Source: Clostridia bacterium (lineage in GTDB: Bacteria; Bacillota; Clostridia; Christensenellales; UBA1242). Taken from it: DNA of 64,000 bases. Below, in pieces: positions 1,194 through 63,795 of this stretch. The DNA is taken from positions 802 to 64,801 of the forward strand of contig JAEEMI010000025.1 of the NCBI GenBank assembly GCA_016283155.1. The letters are read 5' to 3'. The translations under genes were made by a program, and so were the position numbers. The notes under the pieces were generated by a model, which saw nothing but the letters and a program-made list of their open reading frames with translations, ran no database searches and had not been told where the DNA came from. Every line of letters starts with the position of its first letter. The first letter of the stretch is position 1.

Positions 1194-2929
1194 TAGTTAA
1201 ATTCCTTCACTTGTTTGTGAACCATCGCAATAAAGTCTTCAATGGACATTTGGCCTAAATCTTGACCTTCACGCGTACGTACAGCTACTTTATTTGCTTC
1301 AGCTTCTTTCGCACCGATAATTAAACAATAAGGAATTTTTTTCAAAGTTGCTTCACGAATTTTCAAGCCAATCTTTTCGTTACGCAAATCAGTTGCAGTA
1401 CGAATATCAGCAGCCAACAAAGCACGTTTTACTTGTTCACAATATTCATCTTGAGCATTCGTAATGTTCAAAACACGAACTTGAGTTGGTGATAACCAAA
1501 CCGGCAAAGCACCCATAGTTTTTTCAATTAACATTGCTAACGTACGTTCATAGCAACCAATTGAAGAACGGTGAATTAAATATGGTTTAGCTTTTTTACC
1601 ATTTTCATCAATGTAGGTCAAACCGAAACGTTCAGACAAAGCAAAGTCTAATTGAATCGTAAACAAAGTATCTTCTTTGCCGTACGTATTCTTGGCTTGA
1701 ATATCAATCTTGGGTCCGTAGAATGCCGCTTCACCATCGGCTTCAACGAATTTTAATTTGTGTGCCTTTAATGCATTACGAATTTCATTTTGACTCCATT
1801 CCCAAGCATCAGGTAAATCAATATACTTTGCTTTGTTGTTTGGATCCCATTTTGACAAACGGATAGAAACATCATCTTCCATTTTCAAAACTTGCAAGAA
1901 ATATTTGGTTAAATCCATACATTCATCAATGACTTGTTGAATTTGATCCGGACGAACAATAATGTGTCCATCACTTAAAGTATATTCACGTAAACGAATC
2001 AAGCCGTGCATTTCACCACTATTTTCATTACGGAATTGTTTAGCGGTTTCAGCAAAACGCATTGGTAAATCTTTATAAGAACGTAATTCGCTACGATACA
2101 ACAAAATGTGCATTGGGCAAGTCATCGGACGTAACGCCATTACGTTATCGTTCAAAACTTCATCACCAATCAAGAACATTGAATCTTTATAATGTTGCCA
2201 ATGTCCACTAACTTTGTATAAATCACTCTTAGCGAACGAAGGAGTTTTAACGTGCAAATAGCCACGACGAATTTCTTCGTCTTCAACAAAACGTTGCATA
2301 ATACGCAAGATGGTTGAACCTTCGGGAGTAAACAATGGCAAACCTTGTCCAACCAATTCAGAGGAAGTATAATAACCTAATTCACGGCAAATGCGATTAT
2401 GATCGCGTTTTTTAACTTCTTCTTGCCACGCATTATACGCATCTAATTCGCTTTTCTTGGCGAAAGCGACACCGTAGATGCGAGTCAACATTTTATTCTT
2501 TTCATCACCACGCCAATAAGCGCCAGTAATTTGTGTCAACTTAAAAGCTTTGATTTTGCTCAAACGATCCACGTGTGGACCAGCACACAAATCGGTAAAA
2601 TTACCCATTGTGTACATTGAAATAGTTTCACCACGTGGAATATCGTGTAACAATTCAACTTTGTAAATTTCTTTGTTCTTGTTGATAATACGCGATGCTT
2701 CGGCACGTGTAACTTCTTTACGTTCGACCGTAAAATCTTCTTTAATAATACGTGCCATTTCTGCTTCAATTTTTGGCAAGTCTTCATCTTTGATTGGTGT
2801 TGTAAAATCAAAGTCATAATAAAAGCCCGAATCAGTTGCTGGACCAATTGCCAATTTGGTGTTCGGGTAAATGTTTTTTACAGCATATGCTAAAACGTGT
2901 GCTGCAGTATGATTTAGTATTTTATCCAT
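1193..2929 (-). CDS. thrS: Threonine--tRNA ligase, short form without N-terminal TGS domain
   Basis: HTAAHVLA, DLCAGPH, GAYWRGD, LRPMTCP, FRNE.SG, GEAAFYGPKID; start moved from 2971 to ATG 2929, which lies 7 nt after a TATAAT box. Confidence 0.97.
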   Translation of the reverse strand: MDKILNHTAAHVLAYAVKNIYPNTKLAIGPATDSGFYYDFDFTTPIKDEDLPKIEAEMARIIKEDFTVERKEVTRAEASRIINKNKEIYKVELLHDIPRGETISMYTMGNFTDLCAGPHVDRLSKIKAFKLTQITGAYWRGDEKNKMLTRIYGVAFAKKSELDAYNAWQEEVKKRDHNRICRELGYYTSSELVGQGLPLFTPEGSTILRIMQRFVEDEEIRRGYLHVKTPSFAKSDLYKVSGHWQHYKDSMFLIGDEVLNDNVMALRPMTCPMHILLYRSELRSYKDLPMRFAETAKQFRNENSGEMHGLIRLREYTLSDGHIIVRPDQIQQVIDECMDLTKYFLQVLKMEDDVSIRLSKWDPNNKAKYIDLPDAWEWSQNEIRNALKAHKLKFVEADGEAAFYGPKIDIQAKNTYGKEDTLFTIQLDFALSERFGLTYIDENGKKAKPYLIHRSSIGCYERTLAMLIEKTMGALPVWLSPTQVRVLNITNAQDEYCEQVKRALLAADIRTATDLRNEKIGLKIREATLKKIPYCLIIGAKEAEANKVAVRTREGQDLGQMSIEDFIAMVHKQVKEFN

Positions 2930-2936
2930 AGCATCA

Positions 2937-2964
2937 ATTATAACACAATGTCGAAATAAATCAA
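2937..2964 (-). promoter_or_regulatory. sigma-A promoter of thrS, leaderless geometry
   Basis: TTGATT-16-TATAAT with TGTG extension, 7 nt before ATG, no SD. Confidence 0.7.
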
Positions 2965-2996
2965 ATACCAAAAATTATTAATTACTACGACAATGA

Positions 2997-3004
2997 CATA
3001 AACT
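2997..3004 (+). promoter_or_regulatory. sigma-E-like -10 element of ytxC-like gene
   Basis: CATAAACT (cATAcanT-like) 6 nt before ATG 3011, no SD. Confidence 0.4.
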
Positions 3005-3010
3005 ATTGTT

Positions 3011-3682
3011 ATGAAAATTTCTACTGATGAACGTTTCAAATCTTGCATTGAACATTTGGCATTAAAATTTCACGGAAAAATAATCATAGTAAATGAGCGT
3101 TATGTTTTAACCTTAAAACCAACCGTTGACCGTTACAAATTATTTGACAGCATTATTAACCAAATTGTTACTACAATGAAGGCCCATTATTTGCGCAATA
3201 AAATCCGCATAAAGAATGACACGCTCATCAAAGTCTTAATTAACTATGACAAAAAATCTGACACAGTAATTGCTGGATCATTGTTTCAATTATCAACCCA
3301 AATATTATTAGATTCCATTTATGATTTCGCATTAAGCCGCCTGAAATGCCGCTGGGATGAAGTTATTCAATTGGTCAATGAAAATCACAGACAATTAACT
3401 CAAACCGTTTTATTCAATGAGTTATTACGCTTTCTAATTCTGAATATGGATTATCGCATTCCTGAAGTTCACATAATGGTAATTAATAAACATATGACAA
3501 TATGCGACCAAAAATTACAACCACTACCCCAACTTGATGAAGACATAATTAATGCTTTAATTGAAATTGCGCCAAGACAAATTTTTATTCACACTGATAC
3601 AAATTTAGCACGTGATGTCATTGAACGCATTGAAACATTATTTCCAAACTGCGTTTGCATAGAATACAACGCAGTGTTATAA
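3011..3682 (+). CDS. YtxC-like sporulation protein
   Basis: C-terminal DIINALIEIAPRQIFIH...IETLF and F.L.RL...W.E..........NE.LRFL patterns; next to thrS as ytxC is in Bacillota. Confidence 0.65.
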   Translation: MKISTDERFKSCIEHLALKFHGKIIIVNERYVLTLKPTVDRYKLFDSIINQIVTTMKAHYLRNKIRIKNDTLIKVLINYDKKSDTVIAGSLFQLSTQILLDSIYDFALSRLKCRWDEVIQLVNENHRQLTQTVLFNELLRFLILNMDYRIPEVHIMVINKHMTICDQKLQPLPQLDEDIINALIEIAPRQIFIHTDTNLARDVIERIETLFPNCVCIEYNAVL

Positions 3683-3683
3683 T
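3655..3683 (+). promoter_or_regulatory. sigma-A promoter of ricT/yaaT, leaderless geometry
   Basis: TTGCAT-17-TATAAT, 7 nt before ATG 3691; -10 overlaps the upstream stop codon. Confidence 0.75.
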
Positions 3684-3690
3684 TAAAATT

Positions 3691-4317
3691 ATGCGTACTT
3701 ATAATGTTAGAGTTTTTAACGAAACACAAACAACTAAATTTGATAGTGACATTGCTGATTTAAAAGCAAATGAATATGTTATTGTAGAAACAGAAACTGG
3801 TGCTGAATGGGGTGTGGTCGCTGATGAAGGTGTTGAAAAGAAAAAACACGAACCAAACCACGCACAAATTTTTCGTCGTGCAACGACCAAAGATCAAAGC
3901 CAAATTAACTTGTTATTAAAGTCAGCGGAATTTGCCAAAGAAAAAGCCACAACGATGGCAGAACAATTAAAGTTGGATATGCGTGTAATGACAGCTCACT
4001 ATACATTTGATGCCAGTAAGGTTGTCATCAATTTCTCGGCTGAACAGCGCGTTGATTTCCGCGAATTAGTTCGTAATCTTGCCAGTGCCTTACATACGCG
4101 CATTGAACTACACCAAGTTGGAGCACGTGATGAAGTTAAAGCCATTGGGGCGTTAGGACCTTGCGGTCAAGAATGTTGTTGTAAACGTTTCTGTCATAAC
4201 TACCCTGATGTTTCAATCAAAATGGCCAAGGAACAGAACCTATCATTAACTCCTGATAAAATTAACGGCATTTGTGGAAGGTTAAAATGTTGCTTGTCAT
4301 ACGAGTGTAAAAAATGA
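3691..4317 (+). CDS. yaaT: PSP1-domain protein RicT/YaaT (stage 0 sporulation family)
   Basis: RVDFRELV, RIEL.QVGARDE, GPCGQECCC, KMAKEQNLSL.P.KI.G.CGRLKCCL.YE. Confidence 0.9.
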   Translation: MRTYNVRVFNETQTTKFDSDIADLKANEYVIVETETGAEWGVVADEGVEKKKHEPNHAQIFRRATTKDQSQINLLLKSAEFAKEKATTMAEQLKLDMRVMTAHYTFDASKVVINFSAEQRVDFRELVRNLASALHTRIELHQVGARDEVKAIGALGPCGQECCCKRFCHNYPDVSIKMAKEQNLSLTPDKINGICGRLKCCLSYECKK

Positions 4318-4359
4318 TAAACTTTAATAGATAAATTAAAAGCAAAGGAGCATAAAAAT

Positions 4360-4836
4360 ATGAGATGTCCAAACTGTGGTTCACACGATAATAAAGTTGT
4401 TGATAGTCGTACTAATGATAATTCTAATTCAATTCGTCGCCGTCGCGAGTGTATTAAATGTGGTAAACGTTTTACCAGTTACGAAACTATTGAGCGTGTA
4501 TCACTATTAGTTATCAAACGCGATGGCAGCCGCCAATCATTTGATGCACAAAAAATTAAAAACAGTATTATCGCTGCTACTGGTAAACGTCCAGTTTCAA
4601 TGAAACAAATTGACAACATCGTTGAAAGTATTGAAATGCAAATTGCCAATGCCGCCATTGGTGATCAACAAGAAATTGCATCCAGTGTCATTGGTGATAT
4701 GGTAATGGAAGAACTAAAAAAGATTGATGAAGTGGCATATATCCGCTTTGCGGCCGTCTATCGTCAATTCAAAGACGTTTCAACCTTTGTTAACTTCGTA
4801 AAAAACTTTGAACAAGAAATTTCTAAGAAAATTTAA
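4360..4836 (+). CDS. nrdR: Transcriptional repressor NrdR
   Basis: MRCPNC..KVVDSR..IRRRREC..CGKRFT.YE zinc ribbon plus ATP cone, VAYIRFA.VY; SD AAGGAG. Confidence 0.96.
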   Translation: MRCPNCGSHDNKVVDSRTNDNSNSIRRRRECIKCGKRFTSYETIERVSLLVIKRDGSRQSFDAQKIKNSIIAATGKRPVSMKQIDNIVESIEMQIANAAIGDQQEIASSVIGDMVMEELKKIDEVAYIRFAAVYRQFKDVSTFVNFVKNFEQEISKKI

Positions 4837-5876
4837 GCTTGAGTTTTTAACTCTGCCATACGTAAAGCATCAACCATATCGGTAATCTCACCATCAACAA
4901 ACTTGGTAAGATTGTATTCTGTACGATTAATGCGATGGTCAGTCACGCGACCTTGGGGATAATTATATGTTCGAATACGTTCACTTCGGTCGCCGGTACC
5001 AACTTGCGAATGACGTTCAGACGCATATTTTTCGTCTTCTAAACTTTGGTAATAATGTGCTAATTTAGACACCAAAACCGTCATGGCTTTTTCGCGGTTA
5101 GCCAGTTGGCTACGTCCATCCTGACACGTTACAACCATATTGGTAGGTAAATGGGTAATTCGGATTGCGCTCTCAGTTTTATTAATGTGTTGCCCACCTG
5201 CCCCAGAAGCGCGATAAACATCGATGCGTAAATCTTTTTCATCAATTTGAAAATCAACTGTTGTGGCTTCCGGCAAAACTGCCACGGTTGCCGTTGAAGT
5301 GTGGATGCGTCCTTGTGATTCAGTTTCTGGAACACGTTGCACACGATGTACACCGCTCTCGTATTTAAATTTAGAATATGCACCTGAGCCTTTAACTATA
5401 AAAGTAACGTTTTTTACCCCACCAATTCCATTCTCTTCAATATCGGTAATCTCCACCGTAAAACCGTTAGCATTAGCATATAACGTATACATTCGTAATA
5501 GTACTGCAGCAAATAGACAAGCTTCATCGCCACCTGCTGCTGGACGAATTTCAATAATTACATTAGCATCATCACGCTCATCTTTTGGCATTAATAAAAC
5601 TCGTAACTCTTGCTCAGTTTTTTCCAATAAAACTTGGTTCTCGGCAATTTCTTCTTTAGCTAATTCTGCTAACTCAGGATCAGTGATTTCTTGTGCAGAG
5701 GCAATGTCCTTGTTTAATTTTTGATATTTTTGATACGCTTCAATTGTTGGTGCTAATTTTGATACTTCTTTTGAAATCTGTGAATAGCGTGCCACATCAT
5801 TAAAAACTTCAGGCAAAGTTAACTGTTCAATCAGTTGCCCATACTTAATTACTAAAGCACTTAATTCTTCAAACAT
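4833..5876 (-). CDS. prfA: Peptide chain release factor 1
   Basis: GGQ motif (GAGGQHIN), PET recognition motif (RVPETESQGRIHTS), follows prmC. Confidence 0.97.
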   Translation of the reverse strand: MFEELSALVIKYGQLIEQLTLPEVFNDVARYSQISKEVSKLAPTIEAYQKYQKLNKDIASAQEITDPELAELAKEEIAENQVLLEKTEQELRVLLMPKDERDDANVIIEIRPAAGGDEACLFAAVLLRMYTLYANANGFTVEITDIEENGIGGVKNVTFIVKGSGAYSKFKYESGVHRVQRVPETESQGRIHTSTATVAVLPEATTVDFQIDEKDLRIDVYRASGAGGQHINKTESAIRITHLPTNMVVTCQDGRSQLANREKAMTVLVSKLAHYYQSLEDEKYASERHSQVGTGDRSERIRTYNYPQGRVTDHRINRTEYNLTKFVDGEITDMVDALRMAELKTQA

Positions 5877-6718
5877 TATACCCTTATTGTAACCACTCTA
5901 TCGCGATTTGCCAAATCTTTATAAACCTTTACACTGTGATATCCATATTCCAAAGCAATTTGTTCGACTGCAATTGCTTGGTCATAACCAATTTCAAAAA
6001 TAATCATTCCATTTGAATGTAAATGTTTTTTAGCATCAGTTAAAATTCGACGGTAAAAATAAAGTCCATCAATTCCACCATCCAAAGCAATTCGTGGTTC
6101 TTGTAAGGTCCATTGGTCTTCGACCCCAATCTCGGCAGTACGCACATAGGGTGGATTGCAAACAATTAAATCAAATTTTCCGCGCACATCTTCAAATAAA
6201 TCACTTTTAATAAAATTAATATCCGCACGATGCAATGCTGCATTTTCGACTGCAACAGATAATGCTGCTTCACTACAGTCAACAGCGGTGATTTCATACT
6301 TTAACTCACTTTCTCGACTATGTAACCAATCACACAAATAAGATAACGAAATGCCTATAATTCCTGAACCACAACACAAATCTAAAATTCGATAAGGTGT
6401 GTGTTCGTTGCCAATTAAAGAATCAGCGATAATTTTCTTTTCAGTTAATTCGACTAGAACTTCGGTATCGTGGCGTGGAACTAAAACATCCGGCGTAACC
6501 AAAAACTTACGATTATAAAAATAAGTACTCCCCAGTAAATAAGCCAGAGGAATACCTTTTTTATATTGATTAATAATTTCAATTGCCTTTTTAGCAATTG
6601 ACTCACTAATATCTTTCACTAAAAAAACATTGGTACGTTTAGCTTCCAATAAATGGCACAAAACTTGGATTACCGCTTCGTGCTCTCCGGTTTGTGCAAT
6701 TAGTTGTGCTAACTTCAT
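5876..6718 (-). CDS. prmC: Release factor glutamine methyltransferase
   Basis: [34 protein letters not shown]. Confidence 0.95.
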
Positions 6719-6924
6719 TTTGAATTTGCGTAACGTTTATTAAATTTGTCAACACGACCAGCAGTATCTACAATCTTTTGTTTGCCAGTGTAAAACGGAT
6801 GACATTTGGAGCAAATATCAATTTTTACAACATTACCTTCTTTGGTAGTTCCGCAAGTGAATTTGTTACCGCAAGCACATTCAAATTCGGCTTCGTGATA
6901 ATTAGGATGAATATTTTCTTTCAT
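6715..6924 (-). CDS. rpmE: 50S ribosomal protein L31 (Zn-binding type)
   Basis: [35 protein letters not shown]. Confidence 0.97.
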
Positions 6925-6931
6925 AACGATG

Positions 6932-6960
6932 ATGATATCATATCATATAAAACTTGTCAA
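6932..6960 (-). promoter_or_regulatory. sigma-A promoter of rpmE-prmC-prfA, leaderless geometry
   Basis: TTGACA-17-TATCAT with TG extension, 7 nt before ATG; -35 overlaps the murC stop. Confidence 0.8.
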
Positions 6961-8294
6961 TCAAATGTCACGAAACTACTCTGACGCAAAAATTCACCAT
7001 TTACCACATCGCCCGCTCCACATAAAATGATAGCATCGTATTCTACCGCGTGTTGGGTTAAATATTCTGTTAATGCTTGTGGTGTCGCAAGATATTTAAC
7101 TTTTAATTGGCGGCTTAAATCTAAGGCCCGTCCTCCAATAATTGTTTTACCCCGTGCTGCAAAGGTTTTGTACAATACAAGATTAGGAACAGTCGATAAT
7201 ACTTTTACAAAGTCATCCCATAATGAGATTGTGCGTGTATAAGTGTGTGGCTGAAAAATCATTAAATATTTGGAATATAAATTTTTCGCAGTTTGTATTG
7301 TTGTTAAAATCTCACGTGGATGATGAGCATAATCTAAAATCACTGGTGTTTTAACAAATCGTGCAAAGTGTTGAAAACGACGTGCAATACCTCGATAATC
7401 CGCGATTGCTCGACAACTTGAATCGAAATCAATTTTACACACCAAAGCACAAGTAATGGCAGCTAAAGCGTTTGCAACGTTATGCAATCCAGGGACATTA
7501 GTCACAAAACGTGGAATTTGATAAAACACACCAAAAATTTGGGGATTCAAAACAATTTCAAATTCATAGTTACCACTAACCAATCGTTGTATGTTTTTTG
7601 CATGTACATCTCCATAGTCAATACCAAAAGTTATCGTGCGTTGCTTACCAAATAAATCTGCACTGTTTTCATCATTGGCATTTTTAATGACAATGTTACT
7701 TTTTGCAGCAAATTTTTTGAAATACTGTTTAATTTTGGAGAGGTTTTTATAACAATCTAAATGGTCAGCATCAACATTAGTAATTACCGCAATTTGTGGT
7801 TTTAATTTCAAAAAACTTTTTCTAAATTCGCACGCTTCGGTAATAAACCATTGCTTACCACCAATCTGTAAATTGTCTTGTGCCCCATTATGTACGGTTG
7901 GTTCTCGTCCAGCTTGTTGAAAAATTGAACCAATCATTGCTGTAGTTGAACTCTTACCGTGACAACCGGCAATGGCAATCACTTGCCGATAATGGTGTGC
8001 AATTTGTGCCAATAAAGTTTCACGATAAATAATTTTTATTCCGTTTTGTCGAGCATATAATAATTCAGGATTATCATCTGAAATTGCCCCATTAATAACT
8101 AAATAATGTACTGGTTCGTGTTGCAAATTATTTGCGGAATGACCAATGTAAACGGAAATACCCAATGCAGATAACTCGCGTGTATTAGCAGACTCAACTA
8201 CATCACTACCTGCAACCTGTTTTCCCTGTTTAAATAGTAATTTTGCCAACGCTGACATTGATACTCCACCGATGCCAACAAAAAAATAACGCAC
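6957..8294 (-). CDS. murC: UDP-N-acetylmuramate--L-alanine ligase
   Basis: FVGIGGVSMSALA, AG.HGKSSTT, EACEF, NVDADHLD, DYAHHP.E, FQPHTYTRT, GAGD. Confidence 0.92.
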   Translation of the reverse strand: MRYFFVGIGGVSMSALAKLLFKQGKQVAGSDVVESANTRELSALGISVYIGHSANNLQHEPVHYLVINGAISDDNPELLYARQNGIKIIYRETLLAQIAHHYRQVIAIAGCHGKSSTTAMIGSIFQQAGREPTVHNGAQDNLQIGGKQWFITEACEFRKSFLKLKPQIAVITNVDADHLDCYKNLSKIKQYFKKFAAKSNIVIKNANDENSADLFGKQRTITFGIDYGDVHAKNIQRLVSGNYEFEIVLNPQIFGVFYQIPRFVTNVPGLHNVANALAAITCALVCKIDFDSSCRAIADYRGIARRFQHFARFVKTPVILDYAHHPREILTTIQTAKNLYSKYLMIFQPHTYTRTISLWDDFVKVLSTVPNLVLYKTFAARGKTIIGGRALDLSRQLKVKYLATPQALTEYLTQHAVEYDAIILCGAGDVVNGEFLRQSSFVTFD

Positions 8295-8347
8295 AGTATC
8301 ATATATGCGTTATTTTTTTATCCTGTTATAAAATTATAAAACGTGGA

Positions 8348-8668
8348 TTACAATAAACCCATATTTTTCGCAACCTTAACAGCACGTGCTAATTCACGTT
8401 GGTGAGCAGCACATAAACCAGTTTGACGGCGCGGGAAAATCTTACCACCTTCAGAAATATATTTCTTTAAGCGTGGGTCTTTATAATCGATATACAACGG
8501 ACGTTTAGCTTCATCTTTTTCCATACAGAATGGGCAAACACGACGTTTTTGGCGTGGAACACGTTTTTCTTTGCGTTCTTCAGCGTTTTCTGCTGCATTC
8601 TTTTTCGCTTTGTTTTCTTGACGATTTAATTCTTCAATCACTTCGCGAGTCGATAAATTTTCTCCCAT
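8348..8668 (-). CDS. rpsR: 30S ribosomal protein S18 with charged N-terminal extension
   Basis: RRVCPFC..IDYKD..L.KYISE.GKI.PRR.TG.CA.HQR; SD AAAGGAG. Confidence 0.95.
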
Positions 8669-8683
8669 AATCTCTCCTTTTAA

Positions 8684-9073
8684 TTAAAATGGTAACGAAT
8701 CATCAGCAATTGGTTTCATTTCGACATTATTAGTTTGATCGTATGAATTGCTCGGATTGTCATCTTTACGATTCAAGAATTCGACATCAGTTGCCGTAAC
8801 TTCGACTGACGTACGTTTGTTACCTTCTTTGTCTTCGTAATTGCGGATTTGAATATCACCGCAAATAGCTACTTTGCTACCTTTCTTAATAAATTTAGCA
8901 CAATTTTCACCTAACGCACGCCAAGCAGTAATGTTATAAAAATCAGCTTCTTGGTTTCCGCCAACACGACGATTGACAGCGATCGAAAAACGGCAAACGC
9001 TAGCGTTATTAGCACCAACGGTTGACAATTCTGGATCACGAGTTAAGTTACCTACTAAAAAAACTTTATTCAT
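8684..9073 (-). CDS. ssb: Single-stranded DNA-binding protein
   Basis: MNKVFLVGNLTRDPEL, acidic DDSLPF tail, rpsF-ssb-rpsR order. Confidence 0.97.
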   Translation of the reverse strand: MNKVFLVGNLTRDPELSTVGANNASVCRFSIAVNRRVGGNQEADFYNITAWRALGENCAKFIKKGSKVAICGDIQIRNYEDKEGNKRTSVEVTATDVEFLNRKDDNPSNSYDQTNNVEMKPIADDSLPF

Positions 9074-9079
9074 AGCAAA

Positions 9080-9460
9080 TTATTCTCCTTCTTTAACTTC
9101 TTTGGAATCTTTTGATTCTTTTTCACGCAATTCTTTCTTGGCCAAGTATTCCTCGCGTGCTTTAGCACGATTTTGTTTGCGGATTACATCTTGAGCTAAC
9201 ATAATGTCAGTTTTTGCAATGAACAAATGACGGTTAATACCTTCGGTAATGTTCATCAAAGCTGTCATTTTTGCAGGAACTTCCGGAGCGGCACTAAAAT
9301 TTAACAGGTAATAAAAACCATATTTCTTTTGGCCTAATTTTTCTACTGTAGTTTGTTCACCTGCCATTTTTTTGAAACCAGCGATTAATTCATCGCGCTT
9401 AGCTTCGGCTAGTTTTGCATCCACAACAATCATACATTCATATGATTTCTTGTTTTCCAT
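9080..9460 (-). CDS. rpsF: 30S ribosomal protein S6, atypical (internal deletion, C-terminal extension)
   Basis: YECMIVV, G.YYLLNF, I.EGI.RHL; first gene of rpsF-ssb-rpsR; SD AAAGGAGGT. Confidence 0.88.
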   Translation of the reverse strand: MENKKSYECMIVVDAKLAEAKRDELIAGFKKMAGEQTTVEKLGQKKYGFYYLLNFSAAPEVPAKMTALMNITEGINRHLFIAKTDIMLAQDVIRKQNRAKAREEYLAKKELREKESKDSKEVKEGE

Positions 9461-9465
9461 ATTTT

Positions 9466-9515
9466 ACCTCCTTTTATGGTCTAACGCCTGCACCATTGCG
9501 ATGCAGGAAAAAGAT
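9466..9515 (-). promoter_or_regulatory. Probable S6:S18-binding leader RNA
   Basis: CCTGCATC-GCAAT-GGTGCAGG hairpin, TCTTTT able to pair with AAAAGG of the SD, and TTAGACCA (CCR) just before the SD, as in Bacillota rpsF leaders. Confidence 0.55.
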
Positions 9516-9523
9516 ATGTTGTT

Positions 9524-9552
9524 ATCATACAACATAACAGCAAAAAAAGCAA
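9524..9552 (-). promoter_or_regulatory. sigma-A promoter of rpsF operon
   Basis: TTGCTT-17-TATGAT. Confidence 0.65.
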
Positions 9553-9563
9553 CCATAAATATC

Positions 9564-9592
9564 TTGCGTTAATTCAAGAAGTTTGTTATAGT
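9564..9592 (+). promoter_or_regulatory. sigma-A promoter of tRNA-Met
   Basis: TTGCGT-17-TATAGT with TG extension, 8 nt before tRNA +1. Confidence 0.7.
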
Positions 9593-9600
9593 ATCTATAC

Positions 9601-9676: not shown

Positions 9677-9677
9677 A

Positions 9678-9707
9678 AAAAACTCAATCAATTAAGGTTG
9701 AGTTTTT
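9678..9707. terminator. Bidirectional intrinsic terminator
   Basis: AAAAACTCAATC-AATTAA-GGTTGAGTTTTT between convergent tRNA-Met and NUDIX gene. Confidence 0.75.
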
Positions 9708-53378: not shown

Positions 53379-53384
53379 AAACCA

Positions 53385-54461: not shown

Positions 54462-55542
54462 TTTCTTCTCCTTCATCAGTATAAGGACTAGTTGGTCGTA
54501 GCGGTAACGATGTTAAAGGTGTTAACTCTCCGTTTGATTGTGAAACACTATAAAAATAGATTGGTTTCGCTGTACCTTCAACGACTTCAGGGGTAATTGT
54601 AATCCGTTTTAAATTCTTTTCATTTGGAATATCAAACATAATGCGCGTCATAAAACGTTCACAAATTGTACGTAAACCACGCGCACCAGTTTGTAACTTC
54701 TCAGCCATTTCTGCAATCTTATCAATACTTGCTTCATTAAATTCAATTTCCACCTGTTCCACATCGAGCATCTTTTTATATTGTGAAATTAATGAATTTT
54801 TGGGTTTAACCAAAGCTTCTTTCAAGGCAGCCCGATTTAAAGCCTCCAAAACAACAACGACAGGAAAACGACCACAGAATTCAGGAATCATACCGAACGT
54901 GGCGAAGTCTTCTGCAACAACCTGTTTTAAAATCTCAAAATCACTTAATAAGATTGTATCACGTTCACCCATACGTGTACGAATAATACCTGGTAAATCA
55001 ACAAATGCTCCACCGCAAATAAATAAGATGTTATTAGTATCCATCTTAACGGTTTGCCCTTTGTATTCAACCTCGGCGATGGTACCCTCAACGATTTTCA
55101 ACATAATTTGTTGAATACTTTCACCTTTCATTCGGTTAACACCAGTTACCAACTTATCAATTTCATCCAAGAAAACAATACCCATTTCAGCAGCTCGTAC
55201 ATCGCCATTGGTTTTATCCAGCAACTTAACTAACATCTTATTAATTTCTTCACCGACATTATCCGATGCGACAATTGCGGTTGCATCTGCCACAACAAAA
55301 GTTGTATTTAAAATTTTAGCCAACGAAGTAACTTGCAAAGTTTTACCAGAACCTGTTGGTCCCAGCATCATTACGTTACTTTTCTTAACTTCAACGCCAT
55401 CGCTTTCGCCCGCCTGTGCAAATTTAACGCGTTTGTAATGGTTGTAAACCGCCACAGCCAAAACACGTTTCGCGTCATCTTGCCCGATAACATATTCATC
55501 GAGTTTGGCAACAATTTCAGCGGGAGTAAAAAGATTAATCAC
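54445..55542 (-). CDS. ClpX-like AAA+ ATPase, atypical
   Basis: LDEYVIGQ..AK.VLAVAVYNHYKR, Walker A GPTGSGKT, Walker B FLDEIDK, NILFICGGAF, GARGLR; no ZBD, GYVG, RKH or IGF. Confidence 0.85.
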   Translation of the reverse strand: MINLFTPAEIVAKLDEYVIGQDDAKRVLAVAVYNHYKRVKFAQAGESDGVEVKKSNVMMLGPTGSGKTLQVTSLAKILNTTFVVADATAIVASDNVGEEINKMLVKLLDKTNGDVRAAEMGIVFLDEIDKLVTGVNRMKGESIQQIMLKIVEGTIAEVEYKGQTVKMDTNNILFICGGAFVDLPGIIRTRMGERDTILLSDFEILKQVVAEDFATFGMIPEFCGRFPVVVVLEALNRAALKEALVKPKNSLISQYKKMLDVEQVEIEFNEASIDKIAEMAEKLQTGARGLRTICERFMTRIMFDIPNEKNLKRITITPEVVEGTAKPIYFYSVSQSNGELTPLTSLPLRPTSPYTDEGEENGKGY

Positions 55543-55548
55543 AATATA

Positions 55549-55577
55549 ATGATAGCCGAAAACTACAATAAAACCAA
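55549..55577 (-). promoter_or_regulatory. sigma-A promoter of clpX-like/MORN operon, leaderless geometry
   Basis: TTGGTT-17-TATCAT, 6 nt before GTG. Confidence 0.6.
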
Positions 55578-55597: not shown

Positions 55598-55626
55598 TTT
55601 ACTTTAAAAATTTGGTAAGTTATACT
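55598..55626 (+). promoter_or_regulatory. sigma-A promoter, leaderless geometry
   Basis: TTTACT-17-TATACT, 6 nt before ATG 55633. Confidence 0.7.
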
Positions 55627-55632
55627 TCCGCT

Positions 55633-56385
55633 ATGGAAAGTGGAAAAAGGATGATGAACAGTGAATCACTTCTTCAACCTGATTCAATTGATATTCACGA
55701 AGAACGAGTTCAACACATCATCAGCAAACTTTATCAGATCTTTCAAGATGGCTATCGTCCCGCCCGAGGATTTGAACCATATAATTTTCAATTAGATAAT
55801 AAAAGAAAAGTATCAAAATTAGTTAACTGCTTTGGACACGTACTAAATTTACGCAACGCACAGTTTAATGATTATAAAATTGGACCTTACCAAATTTATG
55901 GTTATTTCCCAAATATTTGTTCTGATACCGACCAACAAGCCGCACAACGAATGTTTGATTTTCTCAAAGAAATTGGTCTAAAAATTGAAGAATGTGCACC
56001 TGATAAAACGATTGAAGATTTTCGGTCTTGGAAGATTGCACTTTACTTTGAAAACACGAACCGATTACACAAAGATTTTCATTTCATTTTAGAAGAGAGT
56101 CCTGACCTTTGGTCTAGTAAACTTGGGTTTTCTCCCAATATTGAACACCTGCGTGAGAAAAATCCACCAGAAGTATATCAAAACCTATTAACCGATGAAT
56201 TTAACTACGAAAGATATGGCGCATTTATAATTACTAACCCCAAAGCCGATGAAAACAATCCTTATATTAAAGGATTAGAACAACGAAAACGAAGCTTAAT
56301 AATTAAGCCAAATCATACGATCATAAAGAAACAATATCTTTTTGAAAGTTGTCCAAAACCAATTACTAAAGATTTATCAAAATAA
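55633..56385 (+). CDS. Hypothetical protein with NC..H / DFH / WSSKLG motifs, paralog A
   Basis: Paralogous to 56449-57195; start set to ATG 55633 because the longer ORF overlaps the clpX-like gene. Confidence 0.8.
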   Translation: MESGKRMMNSESLLQPDSIDIHEERVQHIISKLYQIFQDGYRPARGFEPYNFQLDNKRKVSKLVNCFGHVLNLRNAQFNDYKIGPYQIYGYFPNICSDTDQQAAQRMFDFLKEIGLKIEECAPDKTIEDFRSWKIALYFENTNRLHKDFHFILEESPDLWSSKLGFSPNIEHLREKNPPEVYQNLLTDEFNYERYGAFIITNPKADENNPYIKGLEQRKRSLIIKPNHTIIKKQYLFESCPKPITKDLSK

Positions 56386-56448
56386 TTAAACAAACTTGTT
56401 GTTTAGTATTTACATTACAAATTCAAAGTTATATATTACTACCAAACA

Positions 56449-57195
56449 ATGGATCACGACCAAATTATCAAAGAATACGAAGAACATATCAGACAATATA
56501 TGTTAAGTCATAATGTACCCCAAACGCAACAAACCGAACATATAATTAGAAAATTATGGCAAGTTTGGCGTGACGGTTATCGTCCAGCCCGTGGTAATGA
56601 ATCTTATGAATATAGGTTAAAAAACAAAGCATTAGCATCAACAATAGTTAATTGTATGGGACACATTTTTAATTTACGTAATCAACAACTTGATGACTAT
56701 GATTTTGGTCCATTCCAAATCTTTAATGATTTTCCATCCATCAATCAAGACCCCTACGAAAAAACCGTCAAACAGATGTTTGATTTCATTAAAGAAACTG
56801 GTTTAAAAATTGAAGAATGTGCACCAGATAAAACCATTGACGATTTTCGATCTTGGAAAATTGCCCTTTATTTTGAAAATAAAATTATTAATTGTGGCAA
56901 CCAAAATATTTATCGGCGCGATTTTCATTATCAATTGGAAGAGGGTCCGCAATTATGGTCCAGCAAACTTGGTTTTACCCCTAGTGTTGAATATATAAAT
57001 ACAAAAGAACCACCCCAAGTTTTTCAAAGTTCAATTAGTGAATTTGAACCAACAGTTTATAACCTTTATGGCACCTATCAATTGACTAATCCATACGCTG
57101 ATGAAAATAACCGCTATTTAAAGCACTTAAATATTAATACATCGTGTGGTTTAAAAAAGGCTCCAGAACTAGACATTACGTTACTGAAGTCTTAA
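56449..57195 (+). CDS. Hypothetical protein with NC..H / DFH / WSSKLG motifs, paralog B
   Basis: Shares DGYRPARG, GLKIEECAPDKTI.DFRSWKIALYFEN and WSSKLGF with paralog A. Confidence 0.8.
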   Translation: MDHDQIIKEYEEHIRQYMLSHNVPQTQQTEHIIRKLWQVWRDGYRPARGNESYEYRLKNKALASTIVNCMGHIFNLRNQQLDDYDFGPFQIFNDFPSINQDPYEKTVKQMFDFIKETGLKIEECAPDKTIDDFRSWKIALYFENKIINCGNQNIYRRDFHYQLEEGPQLWSSKLGFTPSVEYINTKEPPQVFQSSISEFEPTVYNLYGTYQLTNPYADENNRYLKHLNINTSCGLKKAPELDITLLKS

Positions 57196-58394: not shown

Positions 58395-60175
58395 CAGATT
58401 TTTAAAATCTCCACAAAAGCTTCACTTGGAATTTCGACATTACCTAACATTCGCATTTTCTTTTTACCTGCTCTTTGTTTTTCCAACAACTTCATTTTAC
58501 GCGTAATATCACCACCATAACATTTTGCTAAAACATCTTTACGTAATGCTTTAACGGTTTCGCGGGCAATAATTTTACCACCGATTGCAGCTTGAATTGG
58601 AACTTCAAACATTTGTCTAGGAATAATATCTTTTAAACGTTCAGCTAATGCTTTACCTTTTTGATATGCCACAGATTCGTGGACAATCAACGATAAAGCA
58701 TCACAAATCTTACCATTTAGTAAAATATCCATTTTAACTAATTCAGCACGCTGATATCCTGCAGCTTCATAATCCAAACTTGCATAACCGTGGCTGCAAC
58801 TTTTCATTCGATCGAAGAAGTCATAAACAATTTCGTTTAGTGGAATTTTGAAATTTAATAACGTGCGATTATTATCTAAATGTTGCATATCAACAAACAC
58901 ACCACGTTTATTAGTAGCTAAATCCATCAAAGCACCGATATATTCGGGTGGCGTCCACATTTTTAATGCCACAATTGGTTCTTCGTAATAATCAATCTCA
59001 ACGGCTTTTGGTAAATTACTTGGGTTAGATACATTTAATGTTCGACCATCATTAGTATGCACTATATAATTAACACTTGGTGCTGTTGTAATGATATCCA
59101 AATTAAATTCACGTTCCAACCGTTCTGTGATGATTTCCATATGTAATAATCCTAAAAAGCCAACACGAAAACCAAAACCCAAAGCCGTACTAGTTTCTTT
59201 AGTAAATTCCAAACTAGCATCGTTTAATTTTAATTTTTCCAATGCATCTTTTAGTTCTCCATACTTATCACCAGCAATCGGATAAATTCCGGTAAAAACC
59301 ACTGGCAAAACTTCTTTATAACCAGGTAATGGTTCGCAAGGCATTTCAGCCGAAGTAATCGTATCACCGATTTTAATTTCACTGACAGTTTTAATACTGG
59401 CACAAATATAACCAACATCACCAGCACTTAATATTTCACACGGCGTTTGTTTAGGAGTAAAAAAGCCAACTTCGGTAACTTCAAATTCTTTATTCGTCGC
59501 TAACATTTTAATCTTGTCGCCAACTTTAACTTGTCCATCGAATAGACGCACTAAACAAACTGCGCCCAAGAAATTATTATAATAACAATCAAATAATAAA
59601 GCTTTTAACGGCTGATTTTCGTCGCCAGTTGGTGCTGGTAACAATTCAATGATTTGCTCTAATACTTGGTCAATGTTAGTCCCATTTTTAGCAGAAATTG
59701 CCGGAGCTAAACCCGCGGGAATACCAATCACTTGTTCAATTTCAGTACGTACACGTTCTACATCGGCAGCTGGCAAATCGATTTTATTAATTACGGGTAA
59801 AATTTCCAAATGATTATCAATCGCTAAATAAGCATTCGAAAGTGTTTGTGCTTCCACTCCTTGGGTTGCATCAACAATCAAGATTGCTCCTTCACAAGCC
59901 GCTAAAGAACGTGAAACTTCGTAAGTAAAATCGACGTGTCCGGGCGTATCTATTAAGTTTAAAACATATTCTTCGCCTTTATAATTATATAACATTCGCG
60001 TTGGTGTTAATTTAATTGTGATACCACGTTCGCGTTCTAAATCCATACTGTCTAACAATTGGGCTTCCATATCGCGTTTAGCCACCGTCCCTGTAATTTC
60101 CAATAAACGATCGGCCAACGTTGATTTACCGTGGTCAATATGTGCGACAATACAAAAGTTGCGAATTCGCTTCAC
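58394..60175 (-). CDS. lepA: Elongation factor 4
   Basis: [52 protein letters not shown]. Confidence 0.98.
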
Positions 60176-60181
60176 AATTAT

Positions 60182-60210
60182 ATCTTAACGTTTTTTTTGA
60201 TCTAATGCAA
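60182..60210 (-). promoter_or_regulatory. sigma-A promoter of lepA-hemW, leaderless geometry
   Basis: TTGCAT-17-TAAGAT, 6 nt before GTG. Confidence 0.7.
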
Positions 60211-60280
60211 TGTAAAGATTGTAATATCCAATTTCGCCCGTTGCAGTAAACAATTGCCATAACACATCTTTCAGTTCCAT
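60185..60280 (-). CDS. YqzL-like small protein (31 aa, below the ORF-track cutoff)
   Basis: Manual translation MELKDVLWQLFTATGEIGYYNLYIALDQKKR; W..F..TG.I..Y.LY pattern and adjacency to recO fit YqzL. Confidence 0.7.
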   Translation of the reverse strand: MELKDVLWQLFTATGEIGYYNLYIALDQKKR

Positions 60281-60303
60281 ATTTATATTATTTACGCTAA
60301 ACT
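60275..60303 (+). promoter_or_regulatory. sigma-A promoter of recO, leaderless geometry
   Basis: TTCCAT-17-TAAACT, 8 nt before ATG, no SD. Confidence 0.55.
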
Positions 60304-60311
60304 ATAGTTGT

Positions 60312-60875
60312 ATGCGTGAAACATTTGTCGAACTGGGAATTATCGTTAAAATTGTACGTAGTGGTGATTACGACGCGCGCTTGGCAGTTTTTACGGCAAC
60401 GGGTTTGCAATGGCGTTCAATCAAAGGTGTTTTTCGTCCCAAAGCAAAATTCGCTGCGGCCTGTGGATTATTTACTGTCGCCGAATTTACAATTTCGGGA
60501 CAATCTGTTACCAACATCAATGTTTTAGTTGCCCCTTACACTTTAGCCAAAGATATAAACCGTTATTATTTAGCATCCAGTTTTGCCGATGCTTTATTAC
60601 ATTTAGAATTCGTAGAACAAGCCCCAACAGCACTTATCACGGCAGTCAATGCTTACACCGCTTTAGCCACAACAAATGAAAGTTGCTACCCAATTTTTTT
60701 AGATTTTTATCAACAAATGCTAGAAACTCTCGGTTATCACATTGAGTTAGATTTTAACCGCGAACATTTAACCCATAGTGTTGCAAAAAAGTTGGTTCAA
60801 CAAACAATTGATGCTTATCTTAATTTTGTTGATTATCAAATTAAATTTTGCGAAAATTTATATTTAAACGTTTGA
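60312..60875 (+). CDS. recO: DNA repair protein RecO, shortened
   Basis: GIIVK....GDYD..L.VFT..G......KGV.RPKAKF....LF...EF OB-fold; L..LGY; no C-terminal Cys cluster. Confidence 0.8.
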   Translation: MRETFVELGIIVKIVRSGDYDARLAVFTATGLQWRSIKGVFRPKAKFAAACGLFTVAEFTISGQSVTNINVLVAPYTLAKDINRYYLASSFADALLHLEFVEQAPTALITAVNAYTALATTNESCYPIFLDFYQQMLETLGYHIELDFNREHLTHSVAKKLVQQTIDAYLNFVDYQIKFCENLYLNV

Positions 60876-61701: not shown

Positions 61702-62028
61702 TTAGAACATAAACATTGATGTTTTAGAACCAGCTTGTTTAGTAACCAAATCAACGATTTGAGGAACGAAAATCAACACAGCAACCAACGCAACAATACC
61801 AATGATAGCATAAATTAATTGTGCCTTCGCATTTTTACGTTTAGTCTCATCACTTGCCGTGAAGAATTTGTATGCCAAAACGACTGCTAAGATAACCGCA
61901 CCAACGGTTAATAAGCCGAACAAGGCAAACATGACATTTTTTACACTATCAACAATTTTGGTTATGTTAGAAGTGTTAACAGTATTTAATGTTTCTGTAG
62001 TACTCATCAAACTTTTAAAGAAATTCAT
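61702..62028 (-). CDS. VirB2/TrbC-like pilin-family small membrane protein
   Basis: Two hydrophobic helices joined by AYKFFTASDETKRKNAK.QL.YAIIG, typical of conjugal-pilin-like proteins; SD AAAAGGAG. Confidence 0.7.
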   Translation of the reverse strand: MNFFKSLMSTTETLNTVNTSNITKIVDSVKNVMFALFGLLTVGAVILAVVLAYKFFTASDETKRKNAKAQLIYAIIGIVALVAVLIFVPQIVDLVTKQAGSKTSMFMF

Positions 62029-62071
62029 TTTTTATTTTTTCTCCTTTTTATTGTTATTTTTAACTATTTGA

Positions 62072-62100
62072 ATTTTATTATACCATAATAAAGTTGTCAA
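62072..62100 (-). promoter_or_regulatory. Strong sigma-A promoter of the pilin-like gene
   Basis: TTGACA-17-TAAAAT plus overlapping TGGTATAAT. Confidence 0.75.
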
Positions 62101-62118
62101 ACGATTTTTCACACTTTT

Positions 62119-63759
62119 TTATGAGTTTTTAAAACGCAAATAATCGTATTTTTGGTCGGTATGAAACAACCGAATTTGTTTAGTATCTTGAACAAAAATC
62201 AAGGAATCACCGGTATTACCTTGTGGTTGATACAAGACCGCAACTGGTAAAGCAATATCCGTTTTGTTTTCCGTACTATCAGTATCTTCGTCGTTATTTT
62301 CATTTTCATCGGTACTGGTACTGGTGTTTGTAGAAATCGTATCCATTGTACCATTCTTATTAACTTTATAAATTGTACTGCCAGATTGGACATAGATATC
62401 ATCACCCATTACCGCTAACACTGAATCAACGGTAACTGATGATGCCAACTTTTTAGCTTCACCATTTTCTTGATCAAGTACAATCCGATCGCCTGCAATA
62501 CTGTAATGATATAATTTATTATCAATCGTACAGAAATTATTGGCATAAATACCAATGGTAAAGTCTTTTTTGACCCACGTACTTTGAATCGGATTTTGAT
62601 AACTGTAATTTAAATAATTTTGATTAGTAATGACACATAAATCTTTTTCAATCGTCGAAACGTTTTGGCTGGAGACTGAAATAGCAAAAACAAACTGTGC
62701 ACTGGCGTGGGCGGCTTCAGTATCAACCGGTGTTACCGCCATCGGTGTAAACGTTGTTCCCTCTTCCGCGCTGCCAGAATTACCAATTTCCTCAACTTTA
62801 CCGCCATTAATAGAACAACGATACATTATATTGCCACGTGCCGTTGCATTTTCACCACGAGTTTTTGTGTAATAGACATAGCCCATCACTCCACCATAAA
62901 CTTGTGCTAAACTTTCGTTTTGTTTACCATATTGTGTTGCGGTCGGTAAAACTACATTAGAAACACTACGATCTAAAACGTCAATTTTTTGAGTTATGAC
63001 ATTGATTTTTTTAATTTTAGTTTCTGGTTTGTCATTTTTGTTATCGGTTTCATTAACGATTAAATAAATATTTTCTCTAGAATCTGCCCAAACGGTAAAA
63101 TTCTTAGTAGTTAAATCTGTACTATCCGTCGTATAAATCAAAGTATGATTTTTACCATCCAAATCGACACGAAAGAAATCTAAATAATCAGACATTAGGT
63201 TACCGCGATTGTCATAACGGTTATGCGGTGTAACATAAATTAAATATTTACCAAAAACCCACATCGCAGTTTTATCGTGACCAGCGATTTTTGGTACGAC
63301 TGCTTCAATACCATTATTTTTCTTGCCAATACTTTCCCAATCTTTGACACCAACGACTACAGAATTATATTCCGCATCACCAACTTGCCATTCTTTTTTT
63401 TCGTTAGTATTTTCGTCAATATAACTATTATCATATTGATAGTCAAGTACCGGCTTATTATTCGTACCAATCTTCACACGGAAAATACCAGCATCTGGCA
63501 TCACACCTTTGGCATAATATTCATTATCACCATAAGAAAGATCAGAGATCTTAACACTATCACCGACGAAATATAAATAGTCATCCACCATTACAGAAGC
63601 TGTACCATTACCGGATACATAATTTGCCGCTGGAATTGCATTAATACCAGAACGAAATTTAGGTGTAAGATTTGCCACGATTGCCCAAATAATTCCACTC
63701 AAGGCAACAACGGAAACCAAGATAATTAAACAGACTTTTTTGGTAAAAAATTTAGCCAT
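62119..63759 (-). CDS. Membrane-anchored extracellular protein, possible beta-propeller (DUF5050-like)
   Basis: N-terminal TM, repeated D.Y.YF / F.RVDLDG / YVYY / MYR.SING blade-like motifs; start set to ATG 63759. Confidence 0.6.
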   Translation of the reverse strand: MAKFFTKKVCLIILVSVVALSGIIWAIVANLTPKFRSGINAIPAANYVSGNGTASVMVDDYLYFVGDSVKISDLSYGDNEYYAKGVMPDAGIFRVKIGTNNKPVLDYQYDNSYIDENTNEKKEWQVGDAEYNSVVVGVKDWESIGKKNNGIEAVVPKIAGHDKTAMWVFGKYLIYVTPHNRYDNRGNLMSDYLDFFRVDLDGKNHTLIYTTDSTDLTTKNFTVWADSRENIYLIVNETDNKNDKPETKIKKINVITQKIDVLDRSVSNVVLPTATQYGKQNESLAQVYGGVMGYVYYTKTRGENATARGNIMYRCSINGGKVEEIGNSGSAEEGTTFTPMAVTPVDTEAAHASAQFVFAISVSSQNVSTIEKDLCVITNQNYLNYSYQNPIQSTWVKKDFTIGIYANNFCTIDNKLYHYSIAGDRIVLDQENGEAKKLASSVTVDSVLAVMGDDIYVQSGSTIYKVNKNGTMDTISTNTSTSTDENENNDEDTDSTENKTDIALPVAVLYQPQGNTGDSLIFVQDTKQIRLFHTDQKYDYLRFKNS

Positions 63760-63766
63760 ATCAATT

Positions 63767-63795
63767 AGTATATCAATTATCACCCATAAAAGCAA
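63767..63795 (-). promoter_or_regulatory. sigma-A promoter, leaderless geometry
   Basis: TTGCTT-17-TATACT with TG extension, 7 nt before ATG. Confidence 0.7.

Follow-up and report, generated by a model that had tools for sequence, protein, structure and literature searches.

In the genome of an uncultured Clostridia bacterium, many genes that open transcription units start directly behind a promoter, and their mRNAs are likely to carry no leader. We analyzed this layout in a 64,000-nt stretch of DNA (the window; positions 802–64801 of contig C3, GenBank JAEEMI010000025.1) of assembly GCA_016283155.1 (962,603 bp in 32 contigs; ~36% GC, 88% completeness), in the rest of that genome, and in relatives. 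We consider it likely that the boxes upstream of these genes are ordinary sigma-A promoters, placed such that the mRNAs have neither a leader nor a Shine–Dalgarno (SD) site, and that the cell runs both modes of translation initiation. Leaderless initiation at such a frequency is textbook knowledge for Actinobacteria, Deinococcus, and archaea, not for Clostridia. Below, a leaderless-type (LL) start is one at which a promoter abuts the start codon, as distinct from an SD-led start.

A sequence-only reading of the window had pointed to 14 such starts, and a TANNNT hexamer does end 6–8 nt before the start codon at all 14, with 12 hexamers matching TATAAT in five or six positions. The same reading had placed a −35 element usually at 17 bp. 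This is where the best −35 lies in nine sites, the other five having it at 16 or 18 bp. Agreement with TTGACA reaches at least four of six positions in nine sites (perfect at rpmE, rplM, and rplU, all with a 17-bp gap); the five weak elements are those of polA (2/6, in a TG-extended promoter) and of lepA, the clpX-like gene, and the genes starting at 60312 and 63759 (3/6 each). Five sites carry a TG extension. A start model trained on the whole genome assigned 13 of the 14 sites to the LL class at P > 0.9, and the SD posterior was not appreciable at any of the 13 sites it evaluated, in agreement with the proposed lack of SD sites.

Six sites have a 7-nt spacer. At thrS (2927–2964, minus strand), −35 TTGATT (2959–2964), a 16-bp gap, and a TG-extended −10 TATAAT (2937–2942) precede ATG 2929 (posterior for the LL class, P(LL) = 0.99). 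At yaaT, whose product matches the RicT family (ricT; 3654–3693, plus strand), ATG 3691 follows TTTGCA, 18 bp, and a TG-extended TATAAT (3678–3683; P(LL) = 1.0), and the promoter is located inside the 3′ end of the preceding open reading frame (ORF). The other four share a 17-bp gap: rpmE, encoding L31 (6922–6960, minus; TTGACA, TG-extended TATCAT at 6932–6937, ATG 6924, P(LL) = 1.0); an mtaB-like gene (43543–43581, minus; TTTACA, TATAAT at 43553–43558, ATG 43545, P(LL) = 1.0); the rplU (L21) unit (49119–49157, minus; TTGACA, TATCAT at 49129–49134, ATG 49121), in which rpmA at 48828 is SD-led; and a 546-aa ORF (63757–63795, minus; TTGCTT, TG-extended TATACT at 63767–63772, ATG 63759, P(LL) = 1.0). 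A 6-nt spacer is likewise found at six sites, four of them with a 17-bp gap: an mreB-like ORF (11931–11968, minus; TTGCAA, TATAAT at 11940–11945, GTG 11933, P(LL) = 1.0), a clpX-like gene (55540–55577, minus; TTGGTT, TATCAT at 55549–55554, GTG 55542, P(LL) = 1.0), a 250-aa ORF (55598–55635, plus; TTTACT, TATACT at 55621–55626, ATG 55633), and lepA (60173–60210, minus; TTGCAT, TAAGAT at 60182–60187, GTG 60175, P(LL) = 0.99). The fifth, rnhA (53349–53387, plus; P(LL) = 1.0), has TTGCCA, 18 bp, and TATAAT (53373–53378) before ATG 53385. The sixth, polA (48156–48192, minus; P(LL) = 0.95), has a TG-extended TATAAT (48165–48170) before GTG 48158, with the upstream ORF ending only 18 nt away. The spacer is 8 nt for the rplM (L13)–rpsI unit (12827–12866, minus; TTGACA, 17 bp, TATACT at 12838–12843, ATG 12829), whose downstream gene at 12374 is SD-led, and for a 187-aa ORF (60276–60314, plus; TAAACT at 60298–60303, ATG 60312, P(LL) = 0.96). 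With rpmE, rplM, and rplU, ribosomal-protein units are among the LL genes, as had been claimed.

The proposed starts are not arbitrary, since the NCBIfam profile sets in no more than 8 residues from the proposed N terminus for L31, L21, L13, RNase HI, PolA, ThrRS, the MtaB-like protein, and LepA. Residues 7–573 of the thrS product align with positions 2–564 of TIGR00418, residues 1–68 of L31 with 1–68 of its profile, residues 8–144 of L13 with 4–140, and residues 2–593 of LepA with 1–594. Residue 1 of the polA product aligns with position 1 of the 5′–3′ exonuclease profile, residue 1 of L21 with position 1, residue 2 of the rnhA product with position 2 of RNase HI, and residue 8 of the MtaB-like protein with position 2 of the MiaB/RimO family profile. 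The names given earlier to thrS, ricT, rpmE, rplM, polA, rplU, rnhA, and lepA held up; mtaB scored under its equivalog cut-off, and the 187-aa ORF at 60312, which had been called recO, matched no NCBIfam family at E ≤ 1e-5. The 250-aa and 546-aa ORFs had no NCBIfam family match. The clpX-like gene (54445–55542, minus) scored above the cut-off for one of two ClpX equivalog models, its alignment beginning at ClpX profile position 58, without the zinc-binding N-domain; the mreB-like ORF (11109–11933, minus) gave weak MreB matches beginning at profile position ~80. Both proteins are short at the N terminus, and their starts fall at LL promoters.

Across the genome, the signal stood well clear of chance. 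In a blind scan, with every long ORF taken to start at its first ATG, GTG, or TTG and the motif playing no part in the choice, TANNNT began at −12 in 89 of 818 genes, compared with 18–38 at offsets −45 to −18; a peak at this position had been anticipated in the sequence-only reading. Exact TATAAT occurred 13, 8, 19, and 10 times at −14, −13, −12, and −11, respectively (0–4 times at −45 to −15), and TTGAC-like words peaked at −35 to −37. There was no rise of exact TATAAT at −17, −8, or −5, where an internal TAA would also be in frame, so the ORF definition does not explain the peak. We also counted boxes with at least 5/6 matches plus a −35 with at least 3/6 at spacers 5–8, and compared them with five mock offsets. 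The excess was limited to first-in-operon contexts: 44/222 for divergent genes (4–8 at mock offsets), 19/131 for same-strand genes with a gap of at least 80 nt (4–5), and 20/103 for gaps of 25–79 nt (1–6), with 16/336 for gaps under 25 nt (0–6). Searching from the promoter side, 89 of 273 strong −35/−10 pairs lay 5–8 nt from the first in-frame start codon (42 at exactly 6 nt), and no spacer in the 12–39 nt range held more than five pairs. Simple consensus rules applied over all candidate starts had too high a background and were dropped in favor of a probabilistic model.

This was a mixture model in the spirit of GeneMarkS-2, in which each start was chosen by coding potential, start codon, and an upstream model (none, LL, or SD). 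The LL motif it learned combines −10 TATAAT (T 0.87, A 0.96, final T 0.93) and −35 TTGACA, with gap weights of 0.06, 0.72, and 0.20 for 16, 17, and 18 bp and a spacer to the start codon of 6 nt (0.34) or 7 nt (0.23); the SD motif was AGGAGG. Mixture weights (none, LL, SD) were 0.20, 0.47, and 0.33 for first-in-operon genes and 0.05, 0.17, and 0.78 for internal genes. As mixture weights alone are unreliable, we relied on confident counts (P > 0.9 under a fixed model), set against three shuffles. Of 542 first genes, 203 were LL (17–24 in the shuffles) and 123 SD (10–16); of 343 internal genes, 45 were LL (8–10) and 243 SD (71–80). All 885 genes together comprised 248 LL (about 26–32 in shuffles), 366 SD, and 271 unclassified, and because of this last group we give the LL share as a range rather than a single figure: about 37%–47% of first-in-operon genes, and roughly 28% of all genes. 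LL is the commonest class at transcription-unit starts, and SD is the commoner signal over the whole gene set.

These counts temper the sequence-only reading. Leaderless starts had been called the default, which overstates their place: they lead at transcription-unit starts and not in the gene set as a whole. That most housekeeping genes had moved to leaderless initiation is too strong, internal genes being SD-led or coupled by overlaps; the proposed overlap coupling itself was confirmed, with 48 ATGA-type and 35 one-base overlaps genome-wide, most also with an SD. Nor are SD-led genes the smaller set in the window, where the model called 13 LL, 9 SD, and 8 other among first genes and 3 LL, 8 SD, and 4 other among internal genes, for 17 SD against 16 LL.

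The LL calls have the properties of a sigma-A (sigma-70 type) promoter, that is, −35 TTGACA, 17 ± 1 bp, −10 TATAAT, and frequent TG: a −35 with at least 4/6 matches was present in 186/248 and a TG extension in 104/248. Start codons were ATG or GTG in 247/248. ATG starts were found at spacers of 5, 6, 7, and 8 nt (25, 86, 58, and 29 times), and GTG starts at 5, 6, 7, 8, and 9 nt (5, 10, 3, 1, and 1 times). It had been noted that all GTG starts have a 6-nt spacer; this is true of the four listed and is the mode rather than a rule genome-wide (10 of 20). TTG was rare among LL starts (1/248 vs. 34/637 for the others; Fisher P = 1.7e-4), a scarcity that would fit a purine transcription start and the dependence of leaderless initiation on codon–anticodon pairing. 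The chosen start differed from the longest-ORF start in 90/248 LL calls, and gene callers that assume an SD will misplace starts in these genomes.

RNA polymerase normally starts ~7 nt after the −10 box. With −10 elements ending 5–8 nt (mostly 6–7) before ATG or GTG, the first transcribed base would for this reason be the start codon's own first base or lie 1–2 nt ahead of it, and the mRNAs would have no leader and no SD site. Ribosomes may recognize the 5′-terminal start codon with initiator tRNA, in an SD-independent start of the 70S or IF2-dependent kind, by analogy with Escherichia coli, mycobacteria, and Deinococcus. The rest of the genome would use SD-led initiation with an intact anti-SD, so that the cell would run both modes. 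A leaderless mechanism is probably right for these genes.

The translation apparatus offered no counterpart to this change. The anti-SD was read from the 16S rRNA of G005 (same genus) and G020 (most leaderless-rich genus), the assembly of the window genome being without 16S; in both, the 3′ end is GGATCACCTCCTTT and the anti-SD CCUCC is intact. The gene for initiation factor 3 (IF3) is present and intact in the window genome. A multi-domain ribosomal protein S1 gene was not found in this 88%-complete assembly; of 41 family genomes, 14 have an S1-like gene of that kind, which is ~350 aa long and, judged by profile span, has four S1 repeats. We rejected S1 loss as the cause: the gene is absent from leaderless-rich G000 (the window genome) and G020 and equally from SD-type G019, G022, and G024, and it is present in leaderless-rich G023, which leaves no link. 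The anti-SD, IF3, and S1 had been singled out for inspection in the sequence-only reading; the first two showed no change in the genomes inspected, and S1 does not follow the trait. Quite apart from this, loss of S1 seems frequent in the family of the window organism.

That family has at least 57 genera, with genomes of 0.6–1.4 Mb that are mostly 90%–100% complete; genomes of other families of the same order measure 1.3–3.2 Mb. We ran the same pipeline, with motifs fixed from the window genome, on 60–100 kb from each of 35 genomes and counted LL among first genes at P > 0.9. A congener, G009, had 16/65 (SD 15), and the highest values in the family were 24/62 (G023; SD 21) and 41/72 (G020; SD 8). 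Intermediate values came from G066 (12/38), G048 (9/32), G047 (11/48), G044 (8/34), G045 (8/37), G061 (7/34), G059 (5/29), and G021 (10/60), and low ones from G019 (2/96), G022 (1/66), G024 (2/57), G070 (0/31), G073 (0/18), G068 (1/52), and G055 (1/44), with eight others at 5%–12%. In other families of the order we counted 1/61 (G030), 1/80 (G026), 0/81 (G028), 0/70 (G033), 0/56 (G029), 3/41 (G040), 3/52 (G031), 4/63 (G039), and 8/58 (G036). The low-GC negatives G030 (GC 0.36), G026 (GC 0.37), G022, G019, and G024 serve as composition-matched controls. In a LepA tree of 31 rows, the window genome, G009, G023, and G020 formed one clade with support 99, and G044, G047, G058, G066, and G045 a second with intermediate LL values; the tree comes from a quick search of one marker in partial genomes, with support from the Shimodaira–Hasegawa-like approximate likelihood ratio test (SH-aLRT) only, and related genomes do not count as independent cases. 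The highest LL shares fall in a single clade of the family, made up of the window's genus and two further sampled genera, which narrows the earlier attribution to "this lineage": it is one clade inside the family, not the whole family or order.

Individual genes follow the same division. Taking orthologs as reciprocal best hits between the window genome and the sampled stretches, LL genes of the former had LL orthologs in 11/17 cases in G009, 10/13 in G023, and 15/23 in G020, for a total inside the clade of 36/53 LL and 6 SD. Outside it (G021, G024, G022, G019, G036, G026, and G030), 84 orthologs comprised 1 LL, 66 SD, and 17 other. The alignments of the 66 LL-to-SD pairs start at the same residue in 29 cases, and the offset is at most 3 residues in 44 and at most 6 in 57; the leaderless starts are thus the same N termini that relatives reach via an SD. 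For lepA both states can be seen: a leadered one (promoter, leader of ~12–25 nt, GGAG) in G055, G046, G042, G022, and others, and a −10 box 6–9 nt from the start in G009, G023, G047, G048, G059, G044, and G073. As a separate observation, in many Clostridium species (loci L010–L023) lepA is preceded by a terminator-like hairpin and then, immediately ahead of the ATG, by TTAAGATAT or TTTAATATAT; no SD is obvious there, which is unusual for otherwise SD-type genomes.

The origin of the layout, or a great expansion of it, may lie in a single clade within a family of uncultured Clostridia with 0.6–1.4 Mb genomes. Genes that in relatives have a short SD leader downstream of the promoter would, in the clade, have come to have the promoter abutting the start codon, and deletion of the short leaders is a likely route. 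On balance we favor, with some reserve, a history in which this single clade, within a family of genome-reduced, gut-type Clostridia, switched a sizeable part of the genes that open its operons from short SD leaders to leaderless starts, with no visible change in the anti-SD, IF3 kept in the window genome, and S1 loss unlinked. If this is true, ribosomes of the family can already translate leaderless mRNA, the switch was driven on the DNA side by deleting short leaders one gene at a time, and sister genera with 0%–30% leaderless first genes are living intermediates. An Actinobacteria-like frequency beside sister genera that keep SD leaders on the same genes makes a natural comparison set, one that could reveal how a genome shifts its main mode of translation start and whether, and in what way, the ribosome or its factors have to change as well.

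Several points weigh against this interpretation of the boxes. All leaderless calls derive from promoter geometry, and the transcript ends are predicted. Some boxes in the window are weak, namely those of lepA (TAAGAT, −35 3/6), the 187-aa ORF (TAAACT, −35 3/6), and polA (−35 2/6), and the site at 55633 was passed over by the model, which took an ATG at 55549 with no signal. Genome-wide, 216 of 542 first genes were unclassified at P > 0.9 (193 ambiguous, 23 with no signal). The shuffles preserve only the mononucleotide content of 60-nt stretches, and when a free model was run on shuffled upstream DNA, a degenerate, flat-spaced "LL" component still received a weight of 0.32. On 100 kb of a megaplasmid of Deinococcus radiodurans, a leaderless-rich species, the pipeline found nothing (0/62 LL with fixed motifs, a meaningless motif with free ones); neither the gene caller nor the motifs carry over to GC 0.63. 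The pipeline therefore lacks a validating positive control, and the zeros of G028, G033, and G029, all high-GC relatives, carry little weight. A look-up for RNA runs covering window positions 3001–13000 returned none, and four RNA runs under the same species label had 0 reads on window positions 1–13500, which has no bearing either way on the leaderless reading.

The boxes could be real promoters and the genes still be expressed mainly from promoters further upstream or by read-through, on mRNAs with a leader and no SD, the proximal promoters being minor or conditional. LL starts were called for 34 of 174 same-strand genes with a gap of 0–24 nt, and the ricT and polA promoters lie inside or just after an upstream ORF; with upstream ORFs this close, read-through transcripts are plausible, and longer transcripts from upstream promoters could run over the same genes, a further point against leaderless expression. 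We nevertheless regard this explanation as unlikely, as the excess is strongest for divergent genes, where read-through is impossible, as LL genes lack the SD expected on a leadered mRNA in an SD-using cell, and as the layout is kept gene by gene over three genera.

A second possibility is that the A/T-rich hexamer acts on a leadered mRNA, as a non-SD ribosome-binding site or an unstructured enhancer, comparable to the A-rich contexts seen in Bacteroidota or to AU-rich sites that depend on S1. In its favor, the sequence here is rich in A and T, and elements of this type are known from other phyla (PMC6847099, PMC5397173). This explanation strikes us as very improbable: a TTGACA-like word stands a constant 17 bp from the hexamer and TG extensions accompany it, both of them marks of RNA polymerase binding; internal genes are not preceded by the hexamer; and the 88%-complete assembly has yielded no multi-domain S1 gene. 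Scarcely credible, finally, is a by-product of AT-rich intergenic DNA, of TAA stops just upstream of ORFs, and of misplaced starts. TANNNT is indeed common in 36% GC DNA (it occurs at these offsets before ~11% of random internal ATGs), the definition of ORF starts by itself raises the frequency of TA at the in-frame offsets −6, −9, and −12, and the background rises sharply when many candidate starts are allowed. Exact TATAAT, on the other hand, shows its enrichment at −14 to −11 and nowhere else; the pattern does not recur at mock offsets, in shuffles, or in relatives that are just as AT-rich; and profile and ortholog alignments back the chosen starts. The by-product explanation is largely refuted by these controls.

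The window holds two further LL candidates. A 223-aa ORF divergent from thrS (2975–3013, plus) has −10 TAAACT and a 6-nt spacer before ATG 3011, with P(LL) = 0.84, under the 0.9 cut. A 248-aa ORF (56409–56451, plus; P(LL) = 0.96) has −35 TTTACA, 17 bp, −10 TATATT, and an 11-nt spacer before ATG 56449; its leader would measure ~4 nt if the promoter is used. SD-led starts provide the contrast. The rpsF unit (9458–9480, minus) has the SD leader AAAGGAGGT and a 6-nt spacer before ATG 9460 (posterior for the SD class, P(SD) = 1.0), and rpsU, encoding S21 (43585–43605, plus; TIGR00030), has GGGGTGA before GTG 43603 (P(SD) = 0.95). At rny, encoding RNase Y (45435–45490, minus; TIGR03319), a TATAAT ~40 nt upstream of ATG 45437 is followed by a short leader with SD AAAGGAG (P(SD) = 0.95). 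The spoIIAA-like gene (50702–50725, minus), first of a spoIIAA/spoIIAB/sigF-like unit, has AAGGAGG before ATG 50704 (P(SD) = 1.0). SD sites had been noted earlier at the rpsF, rpsU, rny, and nrdR starts, and this was upheld, a quarter to a third of first genes being SD-led.

The closest named records by LepA are metagenome-assembled genomes labeled Clostridia bacterium, uncultured Clostridia or Eubacteriales, and Christensenella sp. The stop codons of the window genome are TGA, TAA, and TAG, and its tRNA-Trp has the anticodon CCA. The organism is a member of the Bacillota of Clostridia type with sporulation-sigma genes. The operon at 49183–50725 (minus) encodes a spoIIAA-like protein (92.5 bits, under the equivalog cut-off), spoIIAB (187.8 bits, above it), and a sigma factor of the SigF/SigG family; elsewhere on the contig (C3:112403–112810), a 205-aa ORF gave a Spo0A match (161.8 bits, under the cut-off) restricted to the C-terminal half of that protein. 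The earlier description as a spore-forming member of the Bacillota is borne out as to the Bacillota and the sporulation-sigma genes, sporulation itself being putative in this reduced genome. Two tandem giant ORFs at 12874–27567 and 27621–42461 (both minus; 4,897 and 4,946 aa) occupy 46% of the window. They are 36% identical over their full length, share identical 48-nt upstream regions and first codons, and have a hydrophobic stretch at the N terminus; the first, rich in T, G, N, and S, matched no Pfam family at E ≤ 1e-4. A small "pilin" ORF (61702–62028, minus) resembles the Mbov_0395 family of pilin-like conjugal transfer proteins of Mollicutes integrative and conjugative elements (39.7 bits, cut-off 40), which hints at a conjugative element nearby.

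Among known systems, the layout can be compared with group C of GeneMarkS-2, typified by Mycobacterium, Streptomyces, Corynebacterium, and Deinococcus. As described in passages of PMC6028130, genomes of this group have a Pribnow box 6–8 nt before operon-first genes, with 25%–50% of operons predicted leaderless, and keep ribosome-binding (SD) sites for internal and the remaining first genes; the group takes in 90% of Actinobacteria, 97% of Deinococcus–Thermus, and 36 of 1064 Firmicutes (3.4%). The window genome shares the box at a fixed short distance, the ~37%–47% of LL first genes (from our own model, not GeneMarkS-2), and the SD for internal genes; it differs in belonging to a low-GC, ~1-Mb uncultured member of the Clostridia. 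Where passages of PMC3160421 give a TANNNT core for the high-GC groups, it has a full TATAAT, a clear −35, and a TG extension.

The same passages of PMC3160421 report an earlier Firmicutes survey with leaderless genes in 56 of 209 genomes (2.4%–16.6% of genes, mean 4.2%), with a concentration in Lactobacillales and Mycoplasma; the searched text of that paper makes no mention of Clostridia. Lactobacillales and Mycoplasma resemble our case in having low-GC genomes and, ~10 nt ahead of the start codon, a TAtAAT-type box with a TG peak, and differ from it in frequency, ~28% of genes being LL in the window genome, although methods differ and the figures are not strictly comparable. Three solventogenic Clostridium species with mapped starts have the same class, sigma-A promoter consensus, and anti-SD; ~2%–3% of their transcripts are leaderless and their 5′ untranslated regions peak near 32 nt, as given in parts of PMC9045289, these being mapped transcripts and ours predictions from geometry. 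Pooled Clostridium, Bacillus, and Paenibacillus loci put through our model gave an SD weight of 0.80 and no promoter-like LL motif. Our literature search returned no report of a leaderless-rich Clostridia lineage and nothing linking "leaderless" with "Christensenellales"; a relative may already be listed among the 36 group C Firmicutes. The window genome is a known genome architecture, of the GeneMarkS-2 group C type, in a new lineage, and its added value is that it comes with close sister genera of the SD type.

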